Shown here: positions 1 to 22,733 of the stretch, piece after piece
Numbering within the stretch: the stretch's first letter is position 1
Layout of the letters: each line of letters begins with the position of its first letter
Assembly (NCBI GenBank): GCA_016699265.1
Contig: CP064967.1
Location: forward strand, 480,001-512,000
Direction: 5' to 3'
Source of the DNA: Candidatus Saccharimonadota bacterium
GTDB taxonomy: Bacteria > Patescibacteriota > Microgenomatia > UBA1406 > GWC2-37-13
DNA: 32,000 nucleotides
Program-made: the position numbers and the translations under genes
Notes under the pieces: generated by a model
What the model was told of the DNA's origin: nothing
Database searches by the model: none
The model's input: the letters and a program-made list of their open reading frames with translations, nothing else

Positions 1-1179
1 GTGGTTAGAATGGAAGACGATCTCAAAAACACAGATGGCCACACGTCAAATGAAAAAAAAGCTGGTGGAGGATCTTTTTTATCGGAGCAACTGGCACTAT
101 TGAAATGCTTAGGGGAAGCAATTGAAAGATTCTCATGCTCAACTTATAAAAACACGGACCTTGTAACTTCGTCTGCAGAGAAATTAGAAGGTAGTATCGA
201 CGTCACTAAAATCGTCGGCTTAACAGAAAGACAAAAAAAACAAAATAAAATGTTTAACGTCACTCCAAAGTCTGTTTTACGTTGGAAACAGGGTTACTCA
301 CTTGGTACTGGCAAAAAAGCCTATATCCCCGCCCAACTTATCTACCATAATTATAAATTTGACTCTCAGGAAAATATGTTTTATTTACCAATCAGTACAG
401 GAGCTGCTGGTGGAGGAAGCTTGACCGCGGCTTTAACGAGAGGAATATTTGAGATAGTAGAAAGAGATTCATTTGTTATTGCGTATTTAAATAAGATACG
501 CTTCCCAAAAGTAAGTCTAGACTCAGTAAAAGATGAATACGTCCAATTCCTACTTGAGATGTTAAAACGATATAGGCTTGCAATTCATGTTATAGATATT
601 ACTAACGACTTAAAGATACCCTGCTTTCTGTCAATAATAGTCAATAAGACAGGTATTGGTCCTGCTGTATCTACTGGTCTTAAGTGCCATCTTGACCCAA
701 TCGAGGCGATAACAGGTTCTATAGAGGAAGCATTTAATGTTCGTACCTGGACTCGACAAAATTACGAGGACAATCCTAAGAAAGAAAAGAAAAACATGAG
801 TGGAAATATAAGTAACACTGATCAGAGAGGGGTTTATTGGTACCAAAAAGAAATGATACATAAATTGGATTTTTGGCTAGACCAAAATGAAAAAACCTAT
901 AACTTAAGCCATGTTAAGTTATCACAACAAAAAATTCTCAGCACCACTGTGCAATCCCTTTTTAAGAAAGGATATGAAATATACTACGCTGATGTAACGC
1001 TACCACTATTAAAGAGGGTCGGTTATAAAATTGTTAAGGTAGTAATTCCTGGATTACAACCTTTCTACATGAACGAGATTTTGCCATATTTAGGAGGCGA
1101 AAGATTAACAGAAGTACCTAAAAAACTACCTTATCAATTTTCACGCACTTTAAATAAGGTGCCACATCCTTTTCTATGA
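1..1179 (+). CDS. YcaO-family cyclodehydratase (TOMM/LAP D-protein), 5'-partial at window edge
   Basis: The frame is open to position 1 with no upstream stop. Only about 20 aa precede the first conserved block, so the N-terminus (and any fused E1-like/RRE domain) is probably outside the window. The translation shows AGGGSF...LGEAIERFS and STGAAGGGSLTAALTRGIFEIVERDSF, both typical YcaO motifs. The C-terminus ...KVPHPFL resembles the Pro-rich tail of azoline-forming YcaOs. The stop overlaps the next start (ATGA at 1176-1179). Confidence 0.85.
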   Translation: MVRMEDDLKNTDGHTSNEKKAGGGSFLSEQLALLKCLGEAIERFSCSTYKNTDLVTSSAEKLEGSIDVTKIVGLTERQKKQNKMFNVTPKSVLRWKQGYSLGTGKKAYIPAQLIYHNYKFDSQENMFYLPISTGAAGGGSLTAALTRGIFEIVERDSFVIAYLNKIRFPKVSLDSVKDEYVQFLLEMLKRYRLAIHVIDITNDLKIPCFLSIIVNKTGIGPAVSTGLKCHLDPIEAITGSIEEAFNVRTWTRQNYEDNPKKEKKNMSGNISNTDQRGVYWYQKEMIHKLDFWLDQNEKTYNLSHVKLSQQKILSTTVQSLFKKGYEIYYADVTLPLLKRVGYKIVKVVIPGLQPFYMNEILPYLGGERLTEVPKKLPYQFSRTLNKVPHPFL

Positions 1180-1955
1180 AAATCAATAACGAATTAAAAA
1201 AGAAATTTAATTTACTGCCATATTCTGAATCGCAACAGTACCATCATGCAACAAAACTTACAAAATTTATAGAAAAAAAAGGTTCTATAAATAATGGTCC
1301 CAAAGAGTGGTTTCATATTTTCTATAAAGGCTATCCAAAATTCGAAAAAATCGTATTACCGAAAAAAATCAATTTGGATAACGTAAAACTCCTACATGCT
1401 TTAAGCAAAAGAAAGACACTGAGAGAATACTCAGGAAAAGAGTTAAATTTTTCAAAACTAGGTACATTGCTTTACTATTCAGCAGGATTAAGAAATAAAA
1501 ATCGTAAGGCTGGGAATAGATTCTACCCTTCTGCTGGAGCAAGGTATCCTCTTGAGACATACATAGTAAGTTTTAATACTAAAGGGCTTAAACAGGGAAT
1601 TTATCACTACCACCTAAGAAGTGGCAAATTAGAGTTTCTTTGGACAAAGAAACATTTTAAGGAAGTGCTTATGAAAAACTTCAACCAAGATTGGATATCG
1701 AACGCAGGAGCATTGATCGTTATTTCAGCAGTTTTTTGGAGGAATGAAATGAAGTATCGAGACAGAGGCTATAGACATACTTTAACAGAATTAGGAGCTT
1801 TAACACAAAACATATATCTTCTTTCAGCGGTTCTAAAATTAGGCTGCGCTTCAATTGGAGGTTTCATTGACGATAAATTAAACTCATTATTGGATTTAGA
1901 TGGTGAAGATGAGTCCGTATTAGGAGTCATAGCGGTCGGTGAGATTGACAAATAG
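1176..1955 (+). CDS. SagB-type FMN-dependent dehydrogenase (nitroreductase fold; azoline to azole oxidase)
   Basis: Motifs FYPSAGARYPLETY and RDRGYRHTLTELGALTQNIYL...GCASIGGFID are characteristic of SagB/McbC-type dehydrogenases. A 4-nt ATGA overlap with the YcaO gene implies translational coupling. Confidence 0.85.
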   Translation: MKINNELKKKFNLLPYSESQQYHHATKLTKFIEKKGSINNGPKEWFHIFYKGYPKFEKIVLPKKINLDNVKLLHALSKRKTLREYSGKELNFSKLGTLLYYSAGLRNKNRKAGNRFYPSAGARYPLETYIVSFNTKGLKQGIYHYHLRSGKLEFLWTKKHFKEVLMKNFNQDWISNAGALIVISAVFWRNEMKYRDRGYRHTLTELGALTQNIYLLSAVLKLGCASIGGFIDDKLNSLLDLDGEDESVLGVIAVGEIDK

Positions 1956-1973
1956 TTTTTTCTGATATATATT
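1945..1973 (+). promoter_or_regulatory. Candidate sigma70-like promoter for the precursor gene (TTGACA-17 nt-TATATT)
   Basis: TTGACA lies at 1945-1950, inside the last codons of the dehydrogenase gene. A 17-nt spacer follows, then TATATT at 1968-1973. A GGGGGTG Shine-Dalgarno sits at 1991-1997 and the ATG at 2003. This rests on sequence pattern only. Confidence 0.35.
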
Positions 1974-2002
1974 TACGGTCGTAAGGGTTAGGGGGTGATT
2001 TT

Positions 2003-2248
2003 ATGAGCAGATCAGAATTATTGTTAGAAGCCAGACCAATTGCCAGGCCAACCAGTAGACCGGTCACTAAAGGCATTCCAACATCAGCAGGAAGTTGTGG
2101 AGGAGGTAGCTGTGGTGGAGGCAGTTGTGGTGGTAGTTGTGGCTGCGACGGTTGTTGTTCCGCAAGTTCACAAGGATGCGCTTGTGACAGCTGTCAGATT
2201 TTTCCGGCCAAACTAAAAAATAAAGGTGTACGTGTTGTAAAGAAGTAA
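2003..2248 (+). CDS. LAP/TOMM precursor peptide (leader + Gly/Ser/Cys-rich core + cationic C-terminal tail)
   Basis: 81 aa. A strong SD (GGGGGTG) ends 5 nt before the ATG. The core, residues 31-65, is SCGGGSCGGGSCGGSCGCDGCCSASSQGCACDSCQ, with 10 Cys, 8 Ser and 11 Gly in 35 residues. The gene lies immediately downstream of the YcaO and dehydrogenase genes on the same strand. Confidence 0.8.
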   Translation: MSRSELLLEARPIARPTSRPVTKGIPTSAGSCGGGSCGGGSCGGSCGCDGCCSASSQGCACDSCQIFPAKLKNKGVRVVKK

Positions 2249-2258
2249 TTACACATAC

Positions 2259-3176
2259 TTAGTACTTTAGACTATTAAGAATCTCTCCTGATTCAAGATA
2301 TTCTACTATTCTGTTCAAATAATCAAGAGCCCAGTGATAGTGAGAATGTCTAAATCTTCTATAAAAACTCACAGTATTTATTCCTACTTCCAGAACATAA
2401 TAAGATAACGACGCTACATCGTCGGTAGAAAGATCGCCAGTTATTTTGGAATATCCTCGTGCGAACTCGGTAATATCTGTAATCGGCTGCCTAGTTCTTA
2501 ACGTATGAAATATGTACTTTGCAATGTCTTTTAGAGGGTCCCCTTCAGACCATGACTCGAAATCAATGAGAGCCATGGTACCATCTTTAAGTACTAATAC
2601 TTGGTCATTGTGAAGATCGTTATGTGTGAATGAAGGTTCCATCTCAACTAAGCGCCCTCTCAATGCTTCGGAATTATTACCAATAAGAGAAGCTGCCTCA
2701 GATCTAAGCGTGTCAGTACCTACACTTTCTAGACGTAGCTGTAATTTGGATGCAATTCTCTCAAAATCAGAATATTCCGATTGCCTCCAGCTTGTTCCCT
2801 CAACGTAAACATCATCATGCATTGTGCGAACTATTTCTCCGAATCTCCTTCGCAATAATAAGTCTGGATTGGTGTAGAGGTTCGTTCCAGCAATCTTAGA
2901 CGTAATTAGCACCGTTTTCCCCTCTTCTGTCATAGCAAGTCCTACCGGAGGAGTTGTCTTTATACCAGCATCGCTTGCTTTGGTTAGCCCTTCCCATTCG
3001 TGTTCCGCGCCATGGGATAATTGCGAAAACTTTATCGCTATATGCTTTCCTCTATGAATTCCGAATAACACAACGCTCGAAGTAAATGGATTTGCCACTG
3101 CCCCGTATACCTGTGGCGCTAGATCTTCTTGCTCTGTACCCAGTAATTTGAGCGGAACTCGATATTCAGGCAACAT
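2259..3176 (-). CDS. APH/choline-kinase-fold phosphotransferase (protein-kinase-like superfamily)
   Basis: It has a catalytic-loop-like FTHNDLHNDQVLV, a metal-binding ALIDFESWSEGDPLKDIAKY (the IDxE...GDPxxDxA pattern of the APH family), and an upstream HIAIKF candidate ATP-binding lysine. It is convergent with the precursor gene, with only 10 nt between the stops. Confidence 0.7.
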   Translation of the reverse strand: MLPEYRVPLKLLGTEQEDLAPQVYGAVANPFTSSVVLFGIHRGKHIAIKFSQLSHGAEHEWEGLTKASDAGIKTTPPVGLAMTEEGKTVLITSKIAGTNLYTNPDLLLRRRFGEIVRTMHDDVYVEGTSWRQSEYSDFERIASKLQLRLESVGTDTLRSEAASLIGNNSEALRGRLVEMEPSFTHNDLHNDQVLVLKDGTMALIDFESWSEGDPLKDIAKYIFHTLRTRQPITDITEFARGYSKITGDLSTDDVASLSYYVLEVGINTVSFYRRFRHSHYHWALDYLNRIVEYLESGEILNSLKY

Positions 3177-3198
3177 ACGGTCACATTATATCCTATTC

Positions 3199-3705
3199 TT
3201 ATTGTTGTGAAGCCATAAATGATCTAATATATTCTCTTTTTTCACTGTCACTTAACTTAAGAACTGCAACCCATATTTTTTTTCTTTCTCCTTTTGACTC
3301 CTTTTTAACATTCGCATTAAGTACCTCGTCCCCATAAAGCTGCTTTAAAGTAAAGTAGAGAAAAAGTGAAATAATTTTATGTACTTTATAATCCCACTCT
3401 TTTGAATAAAATCTGCCTTCGAACTTAATCTTATTGTCTAGAAATATTCTATGGAATAATTCGTGAACTAAAGTTGTTTTTTTTAGAGTTTTAGAATGAC
3501 TAGCTCTGAGCTTTAGAGGATAAGAATAAGAAGAACCTTCGTATACTATTGCATTAATTTTTTTTGTCTTAAAATTTAAACCAGTTATATCACTGATTGC
3601 TTTTCCAATTTTTCCTCTTTCCTCTTTCCAAATAAGACCGTACTCTTCTGTGGCTTTAGAAAGCTTTAGATTATTGTGATCTGGATAAAAACATATATCA
3701 AGCAC
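3199..3705 (-). CDS. Hypothetical small protein with HExxH motif (possible Zn-metallopeptidase)
   Basis: The 168-aa ORF contains LVHELFHRI (HExxH). No signal peptide is visible. No family was recognised beyond the motif. It lies upstream of the kinase on the same strand, with a 22-nt gap. Confidence 0.5.
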   Translation of the reverse strand: MLDICFYPDHNNLKLSKATEEYGLIWKEERGKIGKAISDITGLNFKTKKINAIVYEGSSYSYPLKLRASHSKTLKKTTLVHELFHRIFLDNKIKFEGRFYSKEWDYKVHKIISLFLYFTLKQLYGDEVLNANVKKESKGERKKIWVAVLKLSDSEKREYIRSFMASQQ

Positions 3706-3828
3706 GGGTTTATTTTATCAGACGTTTACCCCTTTTGGGAGATACCTAAAGGGATTGGAACACTTTTAGCATCGTTATGTAAATACACAAAAGTTGAGAA
3801 TTTCGCTTAGCCTCAGATTTGCAAAATG

Positions 3829-3901
3829 TGAGCCCGCAGGGACTCGAACCCTGAACCAATTCCTTAAGAGGGAACTGCTCTACCAGTTGAGCTACGGGCC
3901 C
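3829..3901 (-). tRNA. tRNA-Lys (anticodon CUU), CCA not encoded
   Basis: The reverse complement folds by hand as a 73-nt cloverleaf: GGGCCCG TA GCTC AACTGGTA GAGC A GTTCC CTCTTAA GGAAT TGGTT CAGGG TTCGAGT CCCTG CGGGCTC A. It has a 7-bp acceptor stem (one G-U), a GTTCGAGTC T-loop, and U33-CUU-A37. Confidence 0.9.
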
Positions 3902-3972
3902 GTTATAGCCTAGGCCATTTACCAAGCTCATATTATACACGGTGCTTCCTTCTAAATAAAATCCTGACCAGT

Positions 3973-3998
3973 GCTTCAATTATTTAAATAATTGAAGC
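3973..3998. repeat. Perfect palindrome, copy 1 (core CTTCAATTATTTAAATAATTGAAG)
   Basis: The 24-bp core at 3974-3997 is its own reverse complement. The flanking G/C extends it to 26 bp. An identical core recurs at 25331-25354. Confidence 0.9.
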
Positions 3999-4115
3999 AA
4001 GGATATTTAAACTCGTAGTAATTGATGTTTTTTATTCTGTCTGGATAGGCTAAAGGTGTGTTTTTGTAGCATATATGCGACTGACAAGAAACTAACGAAG
4101 TGATTTTATGGTTAC

Positions 4116-6128
4116 ATGTTCGCAAATGTTTTTACTTTTAACCTTAGAGCCATTCGGTTGAAGATGAATTTGATTATTGTATTGATTTTTGTACTTGCGA
4201 ACTTTCTGTCAGGCACCGTAAATGCAGCTTCACTGCACTTAGAGAAGGATCAAAACAATCCTTTTAATACCAACTTCTATATACTTCAAAGTACCGTAAC
4301 AAAAGAAAATGGAGAGTACAAAATGTGGTTCACAGGTTCTAACGGTACTAATTTAAAGATAAGATATGCTAGTTCAATAGATGGACTTAACTGGCCCACC
4401 TCCGAACTAGTGACGGTAAATGACACCGGTGATAATCACGACCCATCGTTGTTTAAGCATGAAGGAAACAATTATATATATTATATTTCTGAGCCATCTG
4501 AAGGTTCTGGCACCGATATAAAGGTCAAAAAAGCAACGGCAACAGGCGCTCAGTTTGATACTCCAGTTTTAATCAATCTAAATAGGCAGCAATGGAACAG
4601 TCAAAAACTGTCTTGTCCTTTCGGTTACTTTGAAAATGGTACCTACTTTTTGTTTTACTGTGGGACTGCTGGATCAGGTTGGAACTTAGGACTTGCTAGT
4701 TCAATAGATGGTATAAACTTCACACCCTGCTCTAATAATCCAATCATCAGTGGTGGTGATGTGGGTAACACTCAACTCTACACTGATGAGCATAATGTTA
4801 AACATCTACTTTATCACTCAACTAGTGGAATAACTGAGGTTACATCGGTAGGTCCTCTATCATGTAACTCTGTTTGGACAAACTATCATACTTTTATATC
4901 AAGAGACAAACCGTATGATCAAACGTATATTATCGCACCATCTCTTTTATACGACTCCTCTCCAAAAGAACTCTTCTACACCGCAAAGGGACCGGCTACG
5001 TCTGGGGAATGGAAACTAAACCGGGCTGTTGAAAACACAAGTAAGTCAAAGATAATTATTATTCCCGGATTTTTTGCTTCTTGGAATCAAGAGGCTATTT
5101 TACACAATTCAGAAACCAATGATTGGATAATTCCAACATATGTTCATGAATACGATGGATTAATGCAATCTCTCGAAAATGTAGGTTACAAAAAAAATAT
5201 TGATTACTTTGTTTATCCTTACGATTGGAGAAAATCTTTGAGCGAATCAGCCGACAATCTTCATAATTTCTTACAAACAAATATCTGGAGCCTCGATGAT
5301 TCCAATACGGTCAGCTTGGTCGGGCACTCAATGGGAGGATTGCTAAGTAGGATATATGCTCAAAAGTACTCTAGCGACAAAATCTCACAGGTGGTCACTG
5401 TAGGATCACCCCATAAAGGAGTTGTGCAGGTTTACCAACCGTTAGAAGCGGGGGAAACCAAGAAGGATGACTCATTTCTTTGGTTAGGAACAAAACTGTT
5501 GATAAATTTGAATAGATATAACTTTAGAACTGACAGGGAGATTGTAAGGAATTTAATCCCCTCTTTATATGACCTGTTTCCAACCTATGATTTTTTGAAA
5601 AATAAAAAAGGGAACCGTATCTCAGTAAATTCTTTATCAATACAAAATAATGCATTAAACGAATACAGTGATACAACCTCAATTGACAATAAAATGACTG
5701 TAATCTATGGCAACAAAACGATCAATAAAACACCGAAGGAAATTGTCGTTGGCAACAGAGCGCTCTTTGATCTTCTAACTAGGGATTATCTTGATGGAAG
5801 ACCTTTGAGTTACATATATGGAGCAGGTGACTACCTCGTACCTTTAATTAGTTCCCAATTTGGATCTGCACAAGTACAACTACCATTAGATCACGGTGAG
5901 CTAATTTATAAATCGGAAGGGATCAAGCAGATATTTAGTAATTTAAATGTACCATTTTCCGATGATCAGATAGAGGAGGGAGAGGAGACTAAAATATCAC
6001 CTTCCATACTTATCACTGCTCAGTCTCCAATTGCAATAGAGCTGGAGTTAGGCGACAATACATATTCGTCTGAAGGAGGAATGATTTTCTACCTAATGCA
6101 GAGTCTGGGACCTACAAGCTTCATGTGA
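4116..6128 (+). CDS. Secreted two-domain protein: N-terminal beta-propeller-like domain + C-terminal LCAT/lipase-like alpha/beta-hydrolase
   Basis: A signal-peptide-like MNLIIVLIFVLANFLSGTVNA|AS is present; the true start may be the ATG at 4164. Repeated ASSIDG(L/I)N(W/F) blocks are typical of GH43/32/130-type or BNR-like propellers. The C-terminal half has IIIPGFFASWN, YPYDWRKS (LCAT-family YDWR) and LVGHSMGG (GxSxG nucleophile elbow). The 3' end appears frameshifted (see findings). Confidence 0.7.
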   Translation: MFANVFTFNLRAIRLKMNLIIVLIFVLANFLSGTVNAASLHLEKDQNNPFNTNFYILQSTVTKENGEYKMWFTGSNGTNLKIRYASSIDGLNWPTSELVTVNDTGDNHDPSLFKHEGNNYIYYISEPSEGSGTDIKVKKATATGAQFDTPVLINLNRQQWNSQKLSCPFGYFENGTYFLFYCGTAGSGWNLGLASSIDGINFTPCSNNPIISGGDVGNTQLYTDEHNVKHLLYHSTSGITEVTSVGPLSCNSVWTNYHTFISRDKPYDQTYIIAPSLLYDSSPKELFYTAKGPATSGEWKLNRAVENTSKSKIIIIPGFFASWNQEAILHNSETNDWIIPTYVHEYDGLMQSLENVGYKKNIDYFVYPYDWRKSLSESADNLHNFLQTNIWSLDDSNTVSLVGHSMGGLLSRIYAQKYSSDKISQVVTVGSPHKGVVQVYQPLEAGETKKDDSFLWLGTKLLINLNRYNFRTDREIVRNLIPSLYDLFPTYDFLKNKKGNRISVNSLSIQNNALNEYSDTTSIDNKMTVIYGNKTINKTPKEIVVGNRALFDLLTRDYLDGRPLSYIYGAGDYLVPLISSQFGSAQVQLPLDHGELIYKSEGIKQIFSNLNVPFSDDQIEEGEETKISPSILITAQSPIAIELELGDNTYSSEGGMIFYLMQSLGPTSFM

Positions 6129-9222: not shown

Positions 9223-10266
9223 TTAGTTCAAAAATGCCAACGAAGCAAAGATCGCAATCAATGATGAGCCTCCGTAAGAAATAAACGGTAGTGTAATTCC
9301 GGTAATGGGAAATAAGCCCATATTCATTCCGATGTTTATCCCCGCCTGAAAAACAATCGATGAAAAAATGCTTAACTGAAATAAAAACTTAAATTTGCTA
9401 TCGTCATCCTTCTGGTTATATTTTTTTCTAAGCTCATTTATACAGGCTCTTGCAAGAATTAAAAACAATCCTATAACCATTAGTCCTCCTAATAAACCAA
9501 ACTGCTCTACTAGAGAAGCAAAAGCAAAGTCAGTGTGAAACTCAGGAAGAAAATTAAGCTTAGCTTGAGTTCCGTACCCAAGTCCTCTACCCAGCACCTT
9601 ACCAGAGCCAATTGCAATGATCGATTGTACGAGATTATATCCACTTCCGTGTATATCAGCTTGTGGATTCAAAAAACTTAGTAGACGAACCTTTTGGTAT
9701 TCCTTTAAGATCATCCAGTAAATCGGTGCAATTACCATTCCACTTAAGGCTAGCTTTCCAAGAATTTTACGTGGCACTCCAGAGTAGACTAAAACAGGTA
9801 AAAACATCGCGACATAGACCAATGAGGTTCCAAGATCAGGTTGCTTTAAAATGAGAACGGTGGGAAGAAGGAAATAGGCTATCCCTGTAAATACCGTCTT
9901 ATAATTATATAGCCAGTTTTTATTTACCACAAAGTACTGAGCAATAAATATTGCAAAAAATGGCTTGAAAATTTCTGAGGTCTGTATACTAAAAAAATGA
10001 AGGTCGATCCACCGCCGAGAACCTCGAGCTTCAAAACCAATAACATAGGTAAGCACAAGAAGTGATATTCCCACCCAGTAGAGTAAGGTTGCGTTATTCT
10101 TGAAAAAATTAATACCAAGTATCTTAAGACAGATAAAAAACAGAACCGCTAATATACCTGCTATTACCTGCGTAATAATCAGGTCGCTTCTCACGCCGAT
10201 AAGATTAAAGATTCCAATCAAGAATAAAAGTATCGCGGGAAATAAAATGCTCCAGTTGAGTCTCAT
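9223..10266 (-). CDS. rodA: SEDS-family peptidoglycan polymerase (RodA-like)
   Basis: It is a multi-TM protein with GSRRWIDL, KQPDLGTSLV, GSGKVLGRGLGYGTQAKLNFLPEFHTDFAFA and LPFISYGGSS. It lies outside the dcw cluster. Its start shares 1 nt with the ileS stop. Assigning RodA rather than FtsW rests on context. Confidence 0.75.
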   Translation of the reverse strand: MRLNWSILFPAILLFLIGIFNLIGVRSDLIITQVIAGILAVLFFICLKILGINFFKNNATLLYWVGISLLVLTYVIGFEARGSRRWIDLHFFSIQTSEIFKPFFAIFIAQYFVVNKNWLYNYKTVFTGIAYFLLPTVLILKQPDLGTSLVYVAMFLPVLVYSGVPRKILGKLALSGMVIAPIYWMILKEYQKVRLLSFLNPQADIHGSGYNLVQSIIAIGSGKVLGRGLGYGTQAKLNFLPEFHTDFAFASLVEQFGLLGGLMVIGLFLILARACINELRKKYNQKDDDSKFKFLFQLSIFSSIVFQAGINIGMNMGLFPITGITLPFISYGGSSLIAIFASLAFLN

Positions 10267-13070
10267 TAAACTGTTGTAACTCTGGTAACCTTAAATTCAC
10301 CTTCGGTAAGCGTATCAACAAGTGCTTTCTTCTTTATTTCATCCTCCCAGTTCTTTGGCCAACTTGGAAGCGTCACCTCAACGAGCTCAGATCTGTCGGT
10401 CCCTAGATTCTTTCGTTCCGCCTGAATCTTTCGAATAATAACCCTCATCTCCCCTTCTTGCCTTAGATCATCATTAAGTTCGAAATCAAATTCAACACGC
10501 TCTGCTTCGCCTTTAATAAACTCGACTTTCTTTACGTTCAACTCATCCATAATCAGATTGTCTAAATCGGACTTAATTTTAACTGTACTATCGGTAACAA
10601 AAACCTTAAGACCTGCTAATGGTTGTTTCACAGCAAAATTTTTCTCCTTTCTCTGAGCATGACCCAACTCGACGAAAATTCTCAAACTTTTCATCTGGGC
10701 CAAGAGGTCTTTGTCGATAAATTTATTGTCTACCTGAGGCCAGTTTTCGAGATGTACAGACTCTCCACCAGTGAGATTTCTATACATTTCTTCAGTGACA
10801 AATGGAGCTATCGGCGCCATTAGTTTTGTCAGAGTTAATAGCACATGGTAAAGCGTAGATAGAAACTCTACATCGGATGAACGATCTCGGCTTCTTCGAA
10901 TATACCATGTTGAAACATCCTGAATGAATGAGTAATAAAGTTGAATAGTCGTAACCGAATCATACGACTCCATCGACATTGTCACCTGTTCTACGCAGTC
11001 CTGCAAGAGCGCTAGTACCCATTTATCTAGAACATTTTTGGAAGTAACCACCTTAAAATCTTCTGAAGTTTTTTCTGCTTGTTTCGCGTTCATTATAAAA
11101 AACTTGTAGGTATTCCATAGAATCAGAAGTATTCCTCTGATCTGGTCTCTGTAAGCCCCTTCCGAGATTAGAAGGTCTTCGGCCTTCATAACAGAACTAC
11201 CTGCCAAATAAAGTCTGAGTGCGTCTCCCCCGTACTTCTCCAACATTTCTTTTGGATCAGGATAATTCTTAAAATTCTTACTCATCTTTCTTCCATCCGT
11301 TCCAAGTATCACTCCTGTAACTACAACATTTTTAAATGCTGGAGCATCGTAAATTACAGCGCCAATGACATGAAGGACATAAAACCATGCGCGAATCTGG
11401 CCGGTGTACTCTGTTATAAAATCTGGAGGGAAAAAATCTTCAAGTTTATGCGTCGAGTCAAAAGGAAAATGCCTCTCTGCAAAAGACGCTGATCCAGCCT
11501 CTATCCAGCTATCCAAAACCTCAGGAGTTCTTTTCGCCTTCTTTAGGCATTTTTTACAGTTCACAGTCACCCCATCTATGAATGGTTTGTGTAAATCCTT
11601 AACCTCTATGCCGCTCGCATCCTCAAGTTCTTTTATGGACCCTGGGACAAAGCGTTCACCACATTCGCATTCCCATACTGGTACCGGACTCCCCCAGTAG
11701 CGATTTCGGGAGATATTCCAGTCGGGAGCATTTTCCATGCTCTTGAGGAATCTTCCATGTTTAAAGTGTGAAGGAAACCAGTTAATCTTTTCGTTAGTAT
11801 CCCTCATTTTTTTCTTCATCGACTGCACATCCACATACCATGCATTCATTGGATTATAAAAAAGTTGAGTTGCACAGCGCCAGCAATGCGCCGCTGAGTG
11901 AGTATAAGGCTCATCTTTAAAGATGAGATTTCGTTTAGACAGATCCTCATTCACTGCTTTATTTGCCGCTTTATAAAACATCCCTCCGAATAATGGCACA
12001 TCCTTGTAGATGTGGCCTTCGTCGTCTACGTGTTGCACTAGTGGGATATTTTCCCGTTGCATCACCTTCAGATCCTCTTCTCCGTATACTGCTATTGTCA
12101 CAATTCCAGTTCCTTCATCTGCCGTGACAAACTCATCGCCAACGATCTCAAAATAACGCTTTCCGTCATCTTGTTTGTAATAATCGTAGTGCGGAATAAA
12201 TTTTTTACCAATGAGGTCCCTCCCGTAAACCGTATCCCGTATTTCGTATTTCTTATCGATTACTGTGTCGAGCGTAGACTTGGCGAGGATGTATCTTTCA
12301 TCCGCAACTTCTATGGTGACGTATTCTAAGGTTGGGTTAACTGCGAGTGCGGGAGTGACAATTTTATTCCATGGAGTTGTCGACCATGCGAGGAAAAAGG
12401 TATTCTTCTCTCCTTCAACACGATATTTGTAGGTTGTGCCATGTTCGGTAACATCTTTATAGTTGTCGGCGTCCATGGCAACCTCAAAGTTTGAGATTGG
12501 TGTTGAGCAGTGAGGGCAGTATAGAGAAACGCGTAGACCCTTATAGATTTTTCCCTTTTCATACATCTGCTTAAATACCCACATCACCGACTCCATGTAG
12601 TTAATATCCCATGTTCGATATGCATTTTTAAAGTCTACCCAACGACCAACACGATCTACATACCACTCCCATTCTGCTGATGTTTCTGCAACATATTTTT
12701 TACACTCTTCGATAAATGTATCTATTCCGACTTTCTCCTCAATTTCTCGTTTATTCTTTATTTTTAGTTTATTCTCTACCTTATTTTCGATTGGAAGTCC
12801 ATGTCCGTCCCATCCCCATACACGCCGTACGCGATAACCCTTCATCGTCCAGTAACGACAGTAAGGATCCTTCACGATACTAGAGAGCAAAGATCCATAA
12901 TGTGGGTTTCCGGTAACAAAAGGAGGTCCGTCTAGAAATGTCCAAGGTTTATTCGCAGGACGTGACTCAACAGATTTCTCAAATATTTTATTTTTTTTCC
13001 AATAGTTTAGGGTTTCTTCCTCAAGTTTTGGAAAGGTTGGAATAGAAGTGACGTCTTTGAAGCTACTCAT
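10266..13070 (-). CDS. ileS: Isoleucine--tRNA ligase, eukaryote-like (type 2) sequence features
   Basis: 934 aa. It has LDGPPFVTGNPHYGSLL (HIGH region), WGWDGHGLPIE, and GRKMSKNFKNYPDP (KMSKS followed by KNYPDP, as in type-2/eukaryote-like IleRS). Confidence 0.93.
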   Translation of the reverse strand: MSSFKDVTSIPTFPKLEEETLNYWKKNKIFEKSVESRPANKPWTFLDGPPFVTGNPHYGSLLSSIVKDPYCRYWTMKGYRVRRVWGWDGHGLPIENKVENKLKIKNKREIEEKVGIDTFIEECKKYVAETSAEWEWYVDRVGRWVDFKNAYRTWDINYMESVMWVFKQMYEKGKIYKGLRVSLYCPHCSTPISNFEVAMDADNYKDVTEHGTTYKYRVEGEKNTFFLAWSTTPWNKIVTPALAVNPTLEYVTIEVADERYILAKSTLDTVIDKKYEIRDTVYGRDLIGKKFIPHYDYYKQDDGKRYFEIVGDEFVTADEGTGIVTIAVYGEEDLKVMQRENIPLVQHVDDEGHIYKDVPLFGGMFYKAANKAVNEDLSKRNLIFKDEPYTHSAAHCWRCATQLFYNPMNAWYVDVQSMKKKMRDTNEKINWFPSHFKHGRFLKSMENAPDWNISRNRYWGSPVPVWECECGERFVPGSIKELEDASGIEVKDLHKPFIDGVTVNCKKCLKKAKRTPEVLDSWIEAGSASFAERHFPFDSTHKLEDFFPPDFITEYTGQIRAWFYVLHVIGAVIYDAPAFKNVVVTGVILGTDGRKMSKNFKNYPDPKEMLEKYGGDALRLYLAGSSVMKAEDLLISEGAYRDQIRGILLILWNTYKFFIMNAKQAEKTSEDFKVVTSKNVLDKWVLALLQDCVEQVTMSMESYDSVTTIQLYYSFIQDVSTWYIRRSRDRSSDVEFLSTLYHVLLTLTKLMAPIAPFVTEEMYRNLTGGESVHLENWPQVDNKFIDKDLLAQMKSLRIFVELGHAQRKEKNFAVKQPLAGLKVFVTDSTVKIKSDLDNLIMDELNVKKVEFIKGEAERVEFDFELNDDLRQEGEMRVIIRKIQAERKNLGTDRSELVEVTLPSWPKNWEDEIKKKALVDTLTEGEFKVTRVTTV

Positions 13071-13101
13071 ACAGAAGATTATATCAGGTTTGGAAGCTAT
13101 G

Positions 13102-13884
13102 CTATATTCTTTCGTTTAGAGCAGTTGACGCTGCTTGAAATGCATTTTTTTCAGCCAATACGGCAAATGGGTATCGTTCGAAGGATTCCACCAATATTTC
13201 GGCCATCGGACGATTCAGATCTCGATCGGGTACCATTTTTGTTCTCCATAAAACAAAGGCGTTATGGTCATTCATGAGCTCACTAATTGCTTTAAGTTGA
13301 ATGGCGGAATCTTCACTCATCGCACCTATCCTATCCTTCTGCATCGACGCAAGTGCAGCTATCCAGTTTCCAAAGCTAAAATCAGAATAATATGCCTCAG
13401 GTCCCATAAGATTTTTAATGAGAACCTCACGATCGTACATTCGTGGGTCAAGAAGAGTTGCCGTGGCATGATTGGCCTCAAGCCAAGTTTTCTGAATTTC
13501 CACTGCTTCGTTATAAACCTCACGAAGAGGTCGATTAAATCCACGACCTGGATACTGCACAGCAACTGATACGGTACGTACTAACTCTGAATCGATAGTC
13601 CCAATCTTCGCGGCAGACATACGGTATGGATCAATGACTAGCACCCCTTCAGGTTGATGAGAGATCGGATCTTCTTTTACCTGAAAATCTATGACCCATG
13701 GTTGCACTAGCTCCCTCACTGGATCGATAACTTCAATTGTATAAAGTTCTTTTTCAAGCATCTGAGTAACCCAACGTGCATTGTCACTTATGGGTGGGTA
13801 CTTAACATCTGCAATTTTCGCCAAGCGCTCCATTGCTTTGCTAACTAACCCAAGATTATTCGGAGTTCTTTCTGGATGTGCCAT
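13102..13884 (-). CDS. Hypothetical protein (260 aa)
   Basis: It is a long ORF on the same strand as, and tightly packed between, ftsZ-side genes and ileS. No motif was recognised. Confidence 0.55.
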   Translation of the reverse strand: MAHPERTPNNLGLVSKAMERLAKIADVKYPPISDNARWVTQMLEKELYTIEVIDPVRELVQPWVIDFQVKEDPISHQPEGVLVIDPYRMSAAKIGTIDSELVRTVSVAVQYPGRGFNRPLREVYNEAVEIQKTWLEANHATATLLDPRMYDREVLIKNLMGPEAYYSDFSFGNWIAALASMQKDRIGAMSEDSAIQLKAISELMNDHNAFVLWRTKMVPDRDLNRPMAEILVESFERYPFAVLAEKNAFQAASTALNERI

Positions 13885-21415: not shown

Positions 21416-22733
21416 TTATACTCTTTTCAATTTACCACCAATACCAGATATTTTTTCGACAATATTTTCATAGCCTCTTTCAAGTATGCTTGCATTACTA
21501 ACCACCGTCTCACCCTTAGCTATCAGAGCGGCAATGAGTAATGTTGCGCCAGCACGAAGATCTGAAATATTTATTGCACCAGAATGAAGAGGTGCTCCCC
21601 CAGTAATACTAATTTTTTGCTTTAGAGTTTTTGTGTCATCGGCATTGAAGTGATAGATTGTCTTTTTATCAGATTCTGAGGTCTCGACATATTCTATTTG
21701 AGCACCTAGTTTAAGCAGTTCATCGACGTAGGAAAATCTGTTTTCAAAGACCGTCTCATGAATTGTCGAAATTCCATTGGACTGTGTCATCAAGACAGCC
21801 CAGTTTGGCTGCCAATCGGTCATAAACCCAGGATGAGGTTCGGTGACTATTGAAACCGGAAGAATATTTTCACGGTAGGAATACTTGATCGAGTCTTCCA
21901 ACTCCTCTACTAAAACTCCTACCTTTTTCATTGCCTCATTGAAGGTCGTGAGATACTCGGCTTTCAGGCCGTGAATCTCTACCCAACCTTTCGTGGCAAC
22001 GGCTAAGATCGCGAAGGTAACGGCCTCATTCCGATCACAAAATATGAAATGGTTTTGCCTGTTTGAGCGATCTAACTCCAGTTACAATAATGGACGTTCC
22101 CATTCTTTCTATCTTTGCTCCTGCCTCATTCAAAAACTTGATCAGCTCGTCTATCTAAGGTTCAAGGGCTGCATTTTCAATCATGATCGTCTGTGAACCG
22201 ATGGCTGCAATCATAATGAGCAGTTCGGTGCCCGTATGTGTTGGTTTAGCAAACTTGTACGAACCGTTTGGTTCAGTAGGAAGCTTAGCATCATAATATC
22301 CATCCTCAGAATGATACTCAGTAGTTACACCTAATGCCTCCATACCCTGAACAATTCTATCGATCGGCCGCATGCCAATTCTACAACCACCTGGATTTGG
22401 GATTCTGCACTCTTTAAATTTGTGAAGTAATGGCGCAAAAAGTAAAAAAGATGCACGAAGTTTTGATGCGTGAAGTAGATCTGGTTTGCTGCTGCTAAGC
22501 GTGCTTGGGTCTATAGTAACCGTTCCCCCATCTTGCTCCACCGTTGCTCCAAGCTTTTTGATAAGGTGAAGAAGTTCGTGAATGTCGTTGATCTGCGGAA
22601 CGTTTGTCAAGATGACCGGTGACTCAAATAGCAGTGATGCAATCACCGTCTTAAGCGCAAGGTTCTTAGCGCCAGATAGAGTTACCTCACCTTTCAGTAC
22701 ACCCCCTCCTTGAATTATATATGAGTCTTCCAT
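21416..22733 (-). pseudogene. murA: UDP-GlcNAc 1-carboxyvinyltransferase (murA) disrupted by an in-frame TAG and a frameshift
   Basis: The N-terminal part (22155..22733) contains SGAKNLALK and NPGGCRIGMRPID with the catalytic Cys. It stops at a TAG exactly where MurA has ENAAxEP-E-IxDL. Past the TAG, the same frame still reads IDELIKFLNEAGAKIERMGTSIIVTGVRSLKQAKPFHIL. A 1-nt frame change at the A4 run (22039-22042) is then needed to reach FCDRNEAVTFAILAVATKGWVEIHG...MKKVG and the C-terminal part (21416..21931: FMTDWQPN, ETVFENRF, DLRAGATL, ERGYENI). Confidence 0.75.

Follow-up and report, generated by a model that had tools for sequence, protein, structure and literature searches.

A probable azole-peptide gene module with an associated kinase and no recognisable E1-like partner in a Microgenomates bacterium

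Introduction

Linear azole-containing peptides (LAPs, or thiazole/oxazole-modified microcins, TOMMs) are peptides made by the ribosome and modified after translation (RiPPs) whose minimal gene cluster comprises the A and D components, a partner "in most cases", and B, the partner not being a defining part (PMC7136475). The bottromycin enzymes BotC/BotCD and the archaeal YcaO of McrA thioamidation work without an E1-like/ThiF partner (PMC7136475), and in the dehydrazoles azoles are combined with a phospho-Ser-based dehydration of the Ser that precedes an azole, by the LanM-like CcaM (PMC10676384). In the candidate phyla radiation (CPR), the passages of Sharrar et al. 2020 (mBio, PMC7298704) on which we draw report 110 LAP clusters in 93 CPR genomes, including 31 Microgenomates, with a nitroreductase adjacent in 89 of the 110 clusters. 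The present work deals with a LAP-type locus at the start of a 32,000-nt stretch of contig CP064967.1 (positions 480,001 to 512,000), the whole of which is called the window below. An initial annotation, made from these letters alone, had regarded RiPP machinery in such a reduced genome as notable; the CPR clusters published in 2020 (PMC7298704), as far as those passages go, remove that element of surprise. We show here that the locus differs from the systems above in its company, namely a kinase gene that follows the YcaO and SagB genes through divergent lineages. We consider it probable, from gene content and conservation, that positions 1..3705 form a five-gene LAP/TOMM RiPP module of a Microgenomates (CPR) bacterium that works by the mechanism proposed in the Discussion. 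Its features are as follows.

1..1179, plus strand: YcaO cyclodehydratase, the C-terminal 392 of 440 aa (PF02624, TIGR03604, full contigs)
1176..1955, plus strand: SagB-type FMN-dependent azoline dehydrogenase, 259 aa (TIGR03605, PF00881)
1945..1973, plus strand: promoter-like TTGACA-17-TATATT, 11/12, reaching into the end of sagB and lying immediately ahead of the precursor gene; a sigma-70-like consensus match alone
1991-1998, plus strand: Shine-Dalgarno (SD) sequence GGGGGTGA, 4 nt before the precursor ATG, read from the sequence
2003..2248, plus strand: precursor peptide, 81 aa, Cys/Gly/Ser-rich (SD, conserved family)
2259..3176, minus strand: APH-family kinase of protein-kinase-like fold, 305 aa (PF01636, co-occurrence with the module)
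3199..3705, minus strand: HExxH protein, 168 aa, putative minimal zincin-type metallopeptidase (HExxH, AlphaFold2 fold)

Results

YcaO and SagB enzymes

The first reading frame matched Pfam PF02624 over profile positions 5-324 of 325 (E=1.5e-56, 192.6 bits) and the SagD model TIGR03604 (TOMM_cyclo_SagD) with 254.3 bits for a cut-off of 219.25, while TIGR03266 reached 92, far under its cut-off of 365. The motifs from which the enzyme had been recognised, LGEAIERFS, FEIVERDSF and the ending VPHPFL, all lie in ORF 1..1179, and the YcaO call therefore stands. The full-length protein has 440 aa (L001:8682-10004). Its true start lies 144 nt upstream of the window, which leaves 48 aa outside, and because the full contigs start the gene there, the GTG that looks like a start codon at position 1 only reflects where the window was cut. 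The Mg/ATP motifs E87/E90/R91 and E199/E202/R203 (full-length numbering) were invariant across 44 YcaO homologues. At the C-terminus (V-P-H-P-F-L), P436, P438 and F439 were invariant and H437 nearly so in the homologue alignments; the last residue is Leu, versus Pro in the PxPxP-type motif of azoline-forming YcaOs.

The AlphaFold2 model of the YcaO (pLDDT 94) is a single YcaO domain, in which one helix and three strands, made up by the first 75 residues, join the core. Its top matches in the PDB were LynD (TM 0.77), MusD, the Methanocaldococcus jannaschii YcaO (TM 0.73 on the query and 0.83 on the target), TruD, the Escherichia coli YcaO and McbD. Judged by sequence and model, the window YcaO is a stand-alone SagD-type D-protein with no fused E1-like domain. 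The initial annotation had suggested that an E1-like or RiPP recognition element (RRE) part might be fused to the missing N-terminus or encoded just upstream; the missing part is 48 aa, the fold is plain YcaO and the upstream genes are unrelated, and the suggestion is refuted. Three variants of it were rejected on their own grounds. A fused C-D cyclodehydratase hidden upstream does not fit the 48 missing residues, and an RRE-like domain in the YcaO N-terminus is not what the model contains, the helix and three strands being integral to a YcaO fold onto which LynD and the M. jannaschii enzyme can be superposed. An E1-like gene among the five unannotated upstream ORFs was likewise discarded, as these gave no NCBIfam match and are not conserved with the module in other lineages.

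For the dehydrogenase, TIGR03605 gave 140.1 bits (cut-off 78.4), and ORF 1176..1955 contains YPSAGARYP, as the SagB call had it. This motif and the K-Y motif (E-x-K-Y-x-x-R-G-Y-R) are kept in all module loci. The reported overlap of the sagB start with the YcaO stop was confirmed, the ATG running into the TGA in the ATGA of 1176-1179, and by this overlap sagB is, on the reading of the sequence, translationally coupled to ycaO.

Precursor peptide family

The small Cys/Ser/Gly-rich ORF with its own SD was found as described: 81 aa at 2003..2248, preceded by GGGGGTGA, and an SD of the GGAGGTGA type stands ahead of the precursor gene in 7 relatives. The promoter-like TTGACA-17-TATATT is the sole 11/12 match within window positions 1..4200, and a TTGACA box occurs at a similar site in L021, L023 and L108. 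The precursor gene would accordingly have a promoter of its own and be strongly translated. No Pfam or NCBIfam family matched the precursor peptides. The window peptide has a leader with E-A-R-P (residues 9-12), GSCGG(G) repeats, the core G-C-D-G-C-C-S-A-S-S-Q-G-C-A-C-D-S-C, then Q-I-F-P and a basic tail; the three to four repeats that precede the conserved core are an extra feature of this peptide. Homologues adjoin YcaO-SagB in 9 further non-redundant loci (L021, L023, L025, L108, L111, L112, L113, L115 and L116). They share a short leader with E-[AG]-R-P, the core G-C-D-[GSA]-C-C-S-[GA]-[TS]-[CS]-G…[CS]-D-S-[CG] and a conserved Pro three residues past it, followed by a variable, often basic tail. 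Since peptides with the same motifs recur beside YcaO-SagB in these loci, the small ORF is a real gene and not a chance reading frame. Comparison with the closest relative, L021, over a 29-codon core block gave 10 identical, 14 synonymous and 5 non-synonymous codons, so that purifying selection acts on the precursor protein. Conservation in divergent genomes, on which the precursor call depended, was thus found both in the motifs and in this excess of synonymous changes (14 versus 5). A core kept to such an unusual degree speaks for a single conserved target or structure.

The precursor gene is also a local GC peak (0.46 versus 0.28-0.38 around it), with a strong positive GC skew from GGN/TGY/AGY codons. 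The gene (L001 10750-11049 for the same region) also gives rise to long spurious ORFs, on the opposite strand as well as in its remaining frames, and certain gene callers took these in place of the real one.

A kinase and a histidine phosphatase accompany the YcaO-SagB pair

YcaO homologues were looked up at 62%, 47%, 41%, 40% and 38% identity and by a scan of JGI metagenomes, and their loci were screened with phmmer. The kinase accompanied YcaO-SagB in 11 of the 12 informative loci, whose YcaO is 38-62% identical to that of the window. These non-redundant kinase loci are the window, L021, L023, L025, L108, L109, L111, L112, L113, L115 and L116. Beside the kinase, a histidine phosphatase stands in 9 loci, and a homologue of the 168-aa HExxH protein in the window and L021 only. 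The arrangement varies: histidine phosphatase, APH, YcaO, SagB and precursor follow one another with overlapping stops and starts in L113, L115 and L116; the order is YcaO-SagB-phosphatase-APH in L112; and the window, L021, L023, L025, L108 and L111 are convergent. The genes flanking the module differ in every lineage. When the neighbours of 88 YcaO loci were clustered without supervision, only YcaO, SagB, APH and the histidine phosphatase recurred in the window's clade. This clustering agrees with the earlier remark that neither an ABC exporter nor a recognisable immunity gene is visible, none being conserved in the module. Matches in the genome-representative collection (<=38% identity) lack the kinase, and the kinase subtype is visible mainly in metagenome and Logan assemblies.

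Because the co-occurrence persists through changed order, strand and flanks, the kinase is taken here as a predicted functional member of the module. The three-gene logic of the initial annotation has to be redrawn accordingly: YcaO, SagB and precursor are indeed co-directional, but the cluster runs past 2248 and takes in the convergent APH kinase and HExxH genes (2259..3705).

The kinase matched PF01636 with 45 bits (cut-off 23.2) and fell outside every curated subfamily model, with weak sub-threshold matches to LxmK, SrkA-type Ser/Thr kinase, homoserine kinase II and CotS. The LxmK model NF038156 gave 24.7 bits against a cut-off of 315, and on the catalytic loop only. K49, E60, H185-x-D187, Q192 and D205 were invariant, and the beta3 Lys, the alphaC Glu, HxD and DFE of the catalytic set are all in place. 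Homologues of the kinase looked for through a word index, with the single sequence and with a profile, came to only 1-2 proteins and were uninformative. The histidine phosphatases of the relatives (His_Phos_1) keep RHG and the second His; they open directly with the RHG strand, with no N-terminal extension fit for a signal peptide. They resemble CobC, dPGM, phosphoserine phosphatase and SixA, none of which reaches its cut-off. A defence-system reading of the kinase or the HExxH gene received no match in PADLOC.

The HExxH protein

The 168-aa protein matched no family in Pfam, the curated NCBIfam-type models or PADLOC. It belongs to an unannotated family with 258 relatives (~170 aa) in the 50%-cluster library, in which H81 never varies, with E82, H85, H109 and D118 nearly as constant (at least 90%). 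Its AlphaFold2 model has a pLDDT of 97.5. Nearly all of the top 50 PDB fold matches were MA-clan zinc metallopeptidases (M1/M4/M30), with two TFIID chains among them, and the matches were weak (E >= 0.06, TM ~0.45-0.5). Two relatives match peptidase models, Peptidase_M78 just over the cut-off and Astacin under it. That the protein might be a divergent histidine phosphatase was rejected, in view of the missing RHG motif, the lack of a hidden Markov model match and the different fold. The window and L021 share the synteny of this gene with APH, although both flanks differ between them, and it is a probable member of the module in the window's sublineage. Occasional fusions occur in the family (relatives P0123-P0271), to M23 peptidase/transglutaminase, TPR, Big_7 and SnoaL-like domains.

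Search for an E1-like partner

No ThiF or E1-like match was obtained within the module, over the 10 kb that precede it or across the 32-kb window, and no RRE match among the upstream genes; the genome beyond these was not searched. A ThiF/E1-like gene stands directly upstream in more distant YcaO-SagB pairs (L110, L038, L040 and L043), and the distant ThiF-bearing pairs include Nitrospinaceae and Bacillus heterocycloanthracin-type loci. None of the APH-type modules has ThiF, and many other CPR YcaO-SagB pairs have neither ThiF nor APH, so that partner-less SagD-type YcaOs look common in CPR. The accessories of these other CPR pairs comprise beta-propeller/PRTase proteins, TPR with a C70-like cysteine protease, M16 peptidases, an ABC-F ATPase and a radical SAM enzyme.

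In L029, L030, L142, L155 and L158, a two-domain ABC-F-type ATPase (ABC_tran twice, with ABC_tran_Xtn) adjoins YcaO-SagB. ABC-F proteins act as ribosome-protection factors, and their presence hints that the product of this CPR LAP subtype targets the ribosome.

Genomic context of the window

The window is 99.9% identical to contigs L001, L002 and L008. Proteins identical to SagB and the small peptide occur on many public contigs (56 and 45 collection blocks). On 20 same-species contigs the precursor region is 100% identical, and these contigs are for that reason silent on selection. The remainder of the window is housekeeping, with IleRS, RodA, L21/L27, ParB and the full dcw cell-wall and division cluster. 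The host had been guessed to be a CPR bacterium, and rightly so: the NCBI label on the identical YcaO reads "Microgenomates group bacterium". On the full contigs, a type IV pilin-like gene and small unannotated ORFs lie upstream of the YcaO on the opposite strand, followed by GlmS, CofD and methyltransferases. A non-RiPP YcaO context (TfuA, McrA, RimO), for which the initial annotation had wanted the upstream sequence inspected, was not found on the recovered contigs.

The pilin gene (L001:7904-8365) lies directly upstream of the window in the window's species, and in L109 the module sits in the middle of a T2SSE/T2SSF/pilin/prepilin-peptidase cluster (L109:1698-5705 and 9793-13347). The presence of type IV pilus genes beside the module in two lineages may be a coincidence or a tie to host-attachment loci.

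On the other side, a tRNA-Lys(CTT) gene (window 3828..3901, minus strand) follows right after the module. Over window 1..3833 the same-species contigs L007 and L015 show 100% identity; from the 3' end of this tRNA-Lys on, beyond locus positions ~4574 and ~4280, respectively, they part from it. Past it they have PLD-like, helix-turn-helix, UvrD-helicase plus OLD/TOPRIM ATPase (a Gabija-like pair), PD-(D/E)XK and MmeI-type restriction-modification genes, which make up a defence island that varies between strains and has tRNA-Lys as its insertion site in this CPR genome. An LCAT/PGAP1-like alpha/beta hydrolase (window 4116..6128, plus strand) has 670 aa here and 751 or 735 aa on otherwise 99.9%-identical contigs; three indels in 11.9 kb suggest a frameshift or a strain variant. 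In the dcw cluster, a MurA-like gene (EPSP_synthase family) is split into ORFs 21416..21931 and 22155..22733 (minus strand), spanning profile positions 2-192 and 275-416 with the middle absent; this could be a frameshift, a pseudogene or an intervening element.

Discussion

In the mechanism that we propose, the YcaO would use ATP to cyclodehydrate Cys residues of the core, and possibly Ser/Thr, to azolines, and SagB with FMN would oxidise these to thiazoles and oxazoles. Such cyclodehydration and oxidation of the adjacent precursor is the well-supported core of the proposal, inferred from the family membership of both enzymes. Leader recognition would take place without an E1-like/ThiF partner, the E-[AG]-R-P motif presumably being read directly by a module protein. 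The kinase would most likely O-phosphorylate a Ser or Thr hydroxyl of the peptide, the best candidate being the invariant Ser of C-C-S, and the phosphate might serve as a transient mask, as a self-protection step or as a means of activating the residue for elimination to dehydroalanine. Removal of the phosphate would, in most relatives, then fall to a cytoplasmic histidine phosphatase; in the window's lineage, the zincin-like protein in the phosphatase's slot would probably trim the leader and/or the basic C-terminal tail. We place less confidence in this kinase role than in the YcaO/SagB core. A real phosphoryl transfer can be argued because the catalytic residues are conserved and a phosphatase is paired with the kinase. 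The sequence leaves three readings of the kinase, with the phosphate as mask or self-protection, the phosphate as leaving group, or the kinase as a surrogate partner of the YcaO.

Several observations weigh against this mechanism or against parts of it. The metal-binding catalytic-loop Asn of APH is replaced by Gln192 throughout the kinase subfamily, and because of this the activity could be altered. With kinase and phosphatase in one cytoplasm, a futile cycle would result if the two did not work at separate stages. The dehydration or lanthionine route would call for a lyase (HopA1/OspF-like) or a cyclase, which is not present in the module, and an exporter or recognised immunity gene is not among the conserved module neighbours; an extracellular antibiotic role is unproven for that reason. 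L107, whose YcaO is 43% identical, has no kinase within 5 kb. The synteny of the 168-aa gene with the module rests on two lineages only, and its family is also found in a DnaK/DnaJ housekeeping context without YcaO. An E1-like partner elsewhere in the genome is possible. Product, transcript and enzyme activity are predictions from the genes.

Other explanations of the same genes have to be considered. The APH-fold protein might be a new YcaO partner that replaces E1-like/ThiF, binds the E-A-R-P leader and presents or activates the substrate, with or without phosphotransfer. APH and ThiF are mutually exclusive within the window's YcaO clade, the APH stop overlaps the YcaO start in L115 and L116, and a conserved leader motif needs a reader. 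Nevertheless, we regard this role as unlikely: the protein amounts to a kinase core of 305 aa and lacks a winged-helix RRE, selection maintains catalytic residues for which a mere scaffold would have no need, the phosphatase paired with it speaks for genuine phosphoryl chemistry, and the many CPR pairs with neither ThiF nor APH suggest that operation without a partner is common. A related proposal keeps the phosphotransfer and moves it to the finished product, the kinase being a self-resistance enzyme that inactivates the mature azole peptide in the producer, with the phosphatase re-activating it at or after release and no tailoring involved. The archetypal kinases of antibiotic inactivation and producer immunity belong to the APH family (StrA/APH(6), Vph, Mph). 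Apart from the kinase, the module has no conserved immunity gene, and other CPR LAP subtypes bear different candidate immunity genes such as the ABC-F ATPase. Re-activation outside the cell is unsupported, however, as the phosphatases have no N-terminal extension for a signal peptide, and the window's own lineage has no phosphatase altogether. The proposal also overlaps the transient-mask branch of our mechanism, from which sequence cannot separate it; as a distinct explanation we hold it to be quite unlikely.

It could further be supposed that the peptide is not an antibiotic, and instead binds metal or serves in redox reactions, inside the cell or at its surface, with only part of its Cys cyclised and the conserved cysteines of C-D-x-C-C / C-D-S-C left free. 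Such a function would suit a core that is far more conserved than is usual in LAP antibiotics, the Asp conserved beside Cys, the lack of a conserved exporter or immunity gene and the cupredoxin/HMA genes that adjoin one relative. That metal-gene neighbourhood is confined to one lineage, though, SagB oxidase is invariably present, and the variable GSCGG repeats of the window peptide resemble azole sites of the microcin B17 type, which makes this function, in our view, very unlikely. Finally, the cluster might end with its three co-directional genes, the kinase and HExxH genes being unrelated neighbours. In the window both are indeed encoded on the opposite strand, the 168-aa family also turns up in places that have no YcaO, and L107 has YcaO, SagB and precursor without the kinase. 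The presence of APH with YcaO-SagB in 11 of 12 informative loci despite varied flanks, strands and orders, with overlapping reading frames in three of them, renders this highly improbable.

We therefore retain the five-gene module. A more far-reaching interpretation, offered tentatively and with considerable doubt, is that it represents the founding case of a kinase-dependent, E1-partner-independent azole-peptide pathway, in which an APH kinase with a phosphatase or zincin installs a reversible phospho-Ser/Thr "safety catch" or a dehydroalanine, or acts as a new leader-recognition partner. The near-invariant C-D-G-C-C-S-G…C-D-S-C would then be a pharmacophore deployed by episymbiotic CPR against, or to communicate with, their hosts.

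Its five genes fit into 3.7 kb, which makes the module a compact test case within easy reach of synthesis. Two questions of YcaO enzymology are touched by it: by what means a SagD-type, azoline-forming YcaO finds its substrate when no E1-like/ThiF partner is there, and how an azole peptide is altered by a dedicated kinase/phosphatase pair. A core so strongly conserved points to a defined target, and it offers a tractable lead towards a new bioactive scaffold. CPR bacteria, whose genomes are minimal, make their living on other microbes, and a specialised chemistry that they retain is thus likely to matter to their lifestyle. To our knowledge, CPR LAP clusters are known from genome mining only and none has been characterised.

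The locus shares with the CPR clusters of Sharrar et al. the YcaO next to a nitroreductase/SagB and a Cys/Ser-rich precursor, in Microgenomates and Parcubacteria (PMC7298704, in the passages cited). Those passages give an example with YcaO, nitroreductase and peptidase, and contain no kinase, phosphatase, E-A-R-P / C-D-G-C-C-S-G family or comment on the absence of an E1-like protein (PMC7298704). Our literature searches found no description of a kinase/phosphatase-coupled LAP subtype, its precursor family or its missing E1-like partner. The CPR setting is therefore known, whereas the kinase-coupled, partner-less LAP subtype is undescribed in the literature searched.

Like the partner-independent YcaOs, the window enzyme has no E1-like/ThiF partner, and the M. 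jannaschii YcaO is a close structural match; the partner-independent enzymes differ from the window module in what they make (amidines, a single thiazoline or thioamides) and in having no SagB at their side. Kinase-based activation of Ser/Thr has precedents in LxmK of the class V lanthipeptides and in TvaC/TvaD of the thioamitides. The module resembles such kinase-dehydration RiPPs in having an APH/kinase-fold enzyme beside RiPP genes and abundant GSC sites in the window peptide. It differs from LxmK-LxmY, TvaC-TvaD and CcaM in that no HopA1/OspF-type lyase, LanC-like cyclase or LanM domain is present, the companion of the kinase being a phosphatase or a zincin. The likeness to streptolysin S and SagBCD lies in the enzymes, since the YcaO, of about the length of SagD, passes the SagD model TIGR03604 and the dehydrogenase the SagB model TIGR03605; a SagC (TIGR03603-type) partner and SagE-I (CaaX protease, ABC transport) are lacking. 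With microcin B17 (McbABCD-EFG), the locus has in common a Gly/Ser/Cys-rich core with GSC/GGC sites and the combination of a YcaO (McbD) with an FMN dehydrogenase (McbC), and the McbD structures 6GRI/6GOS match the model of the window YcaO. In contrast to that system, counterparts of McbB, which binds the leader as E1-like partner, of the exporter McbEF and of the pentapeptide protein McbG for immunity were not found among the annotated or recurrent neighbours. In sequence and fold, the window YcaO is nearer to LynD, MusD and archaeal YcaOs than to McbD, and the kinase is an addition with respect to microcin B17.

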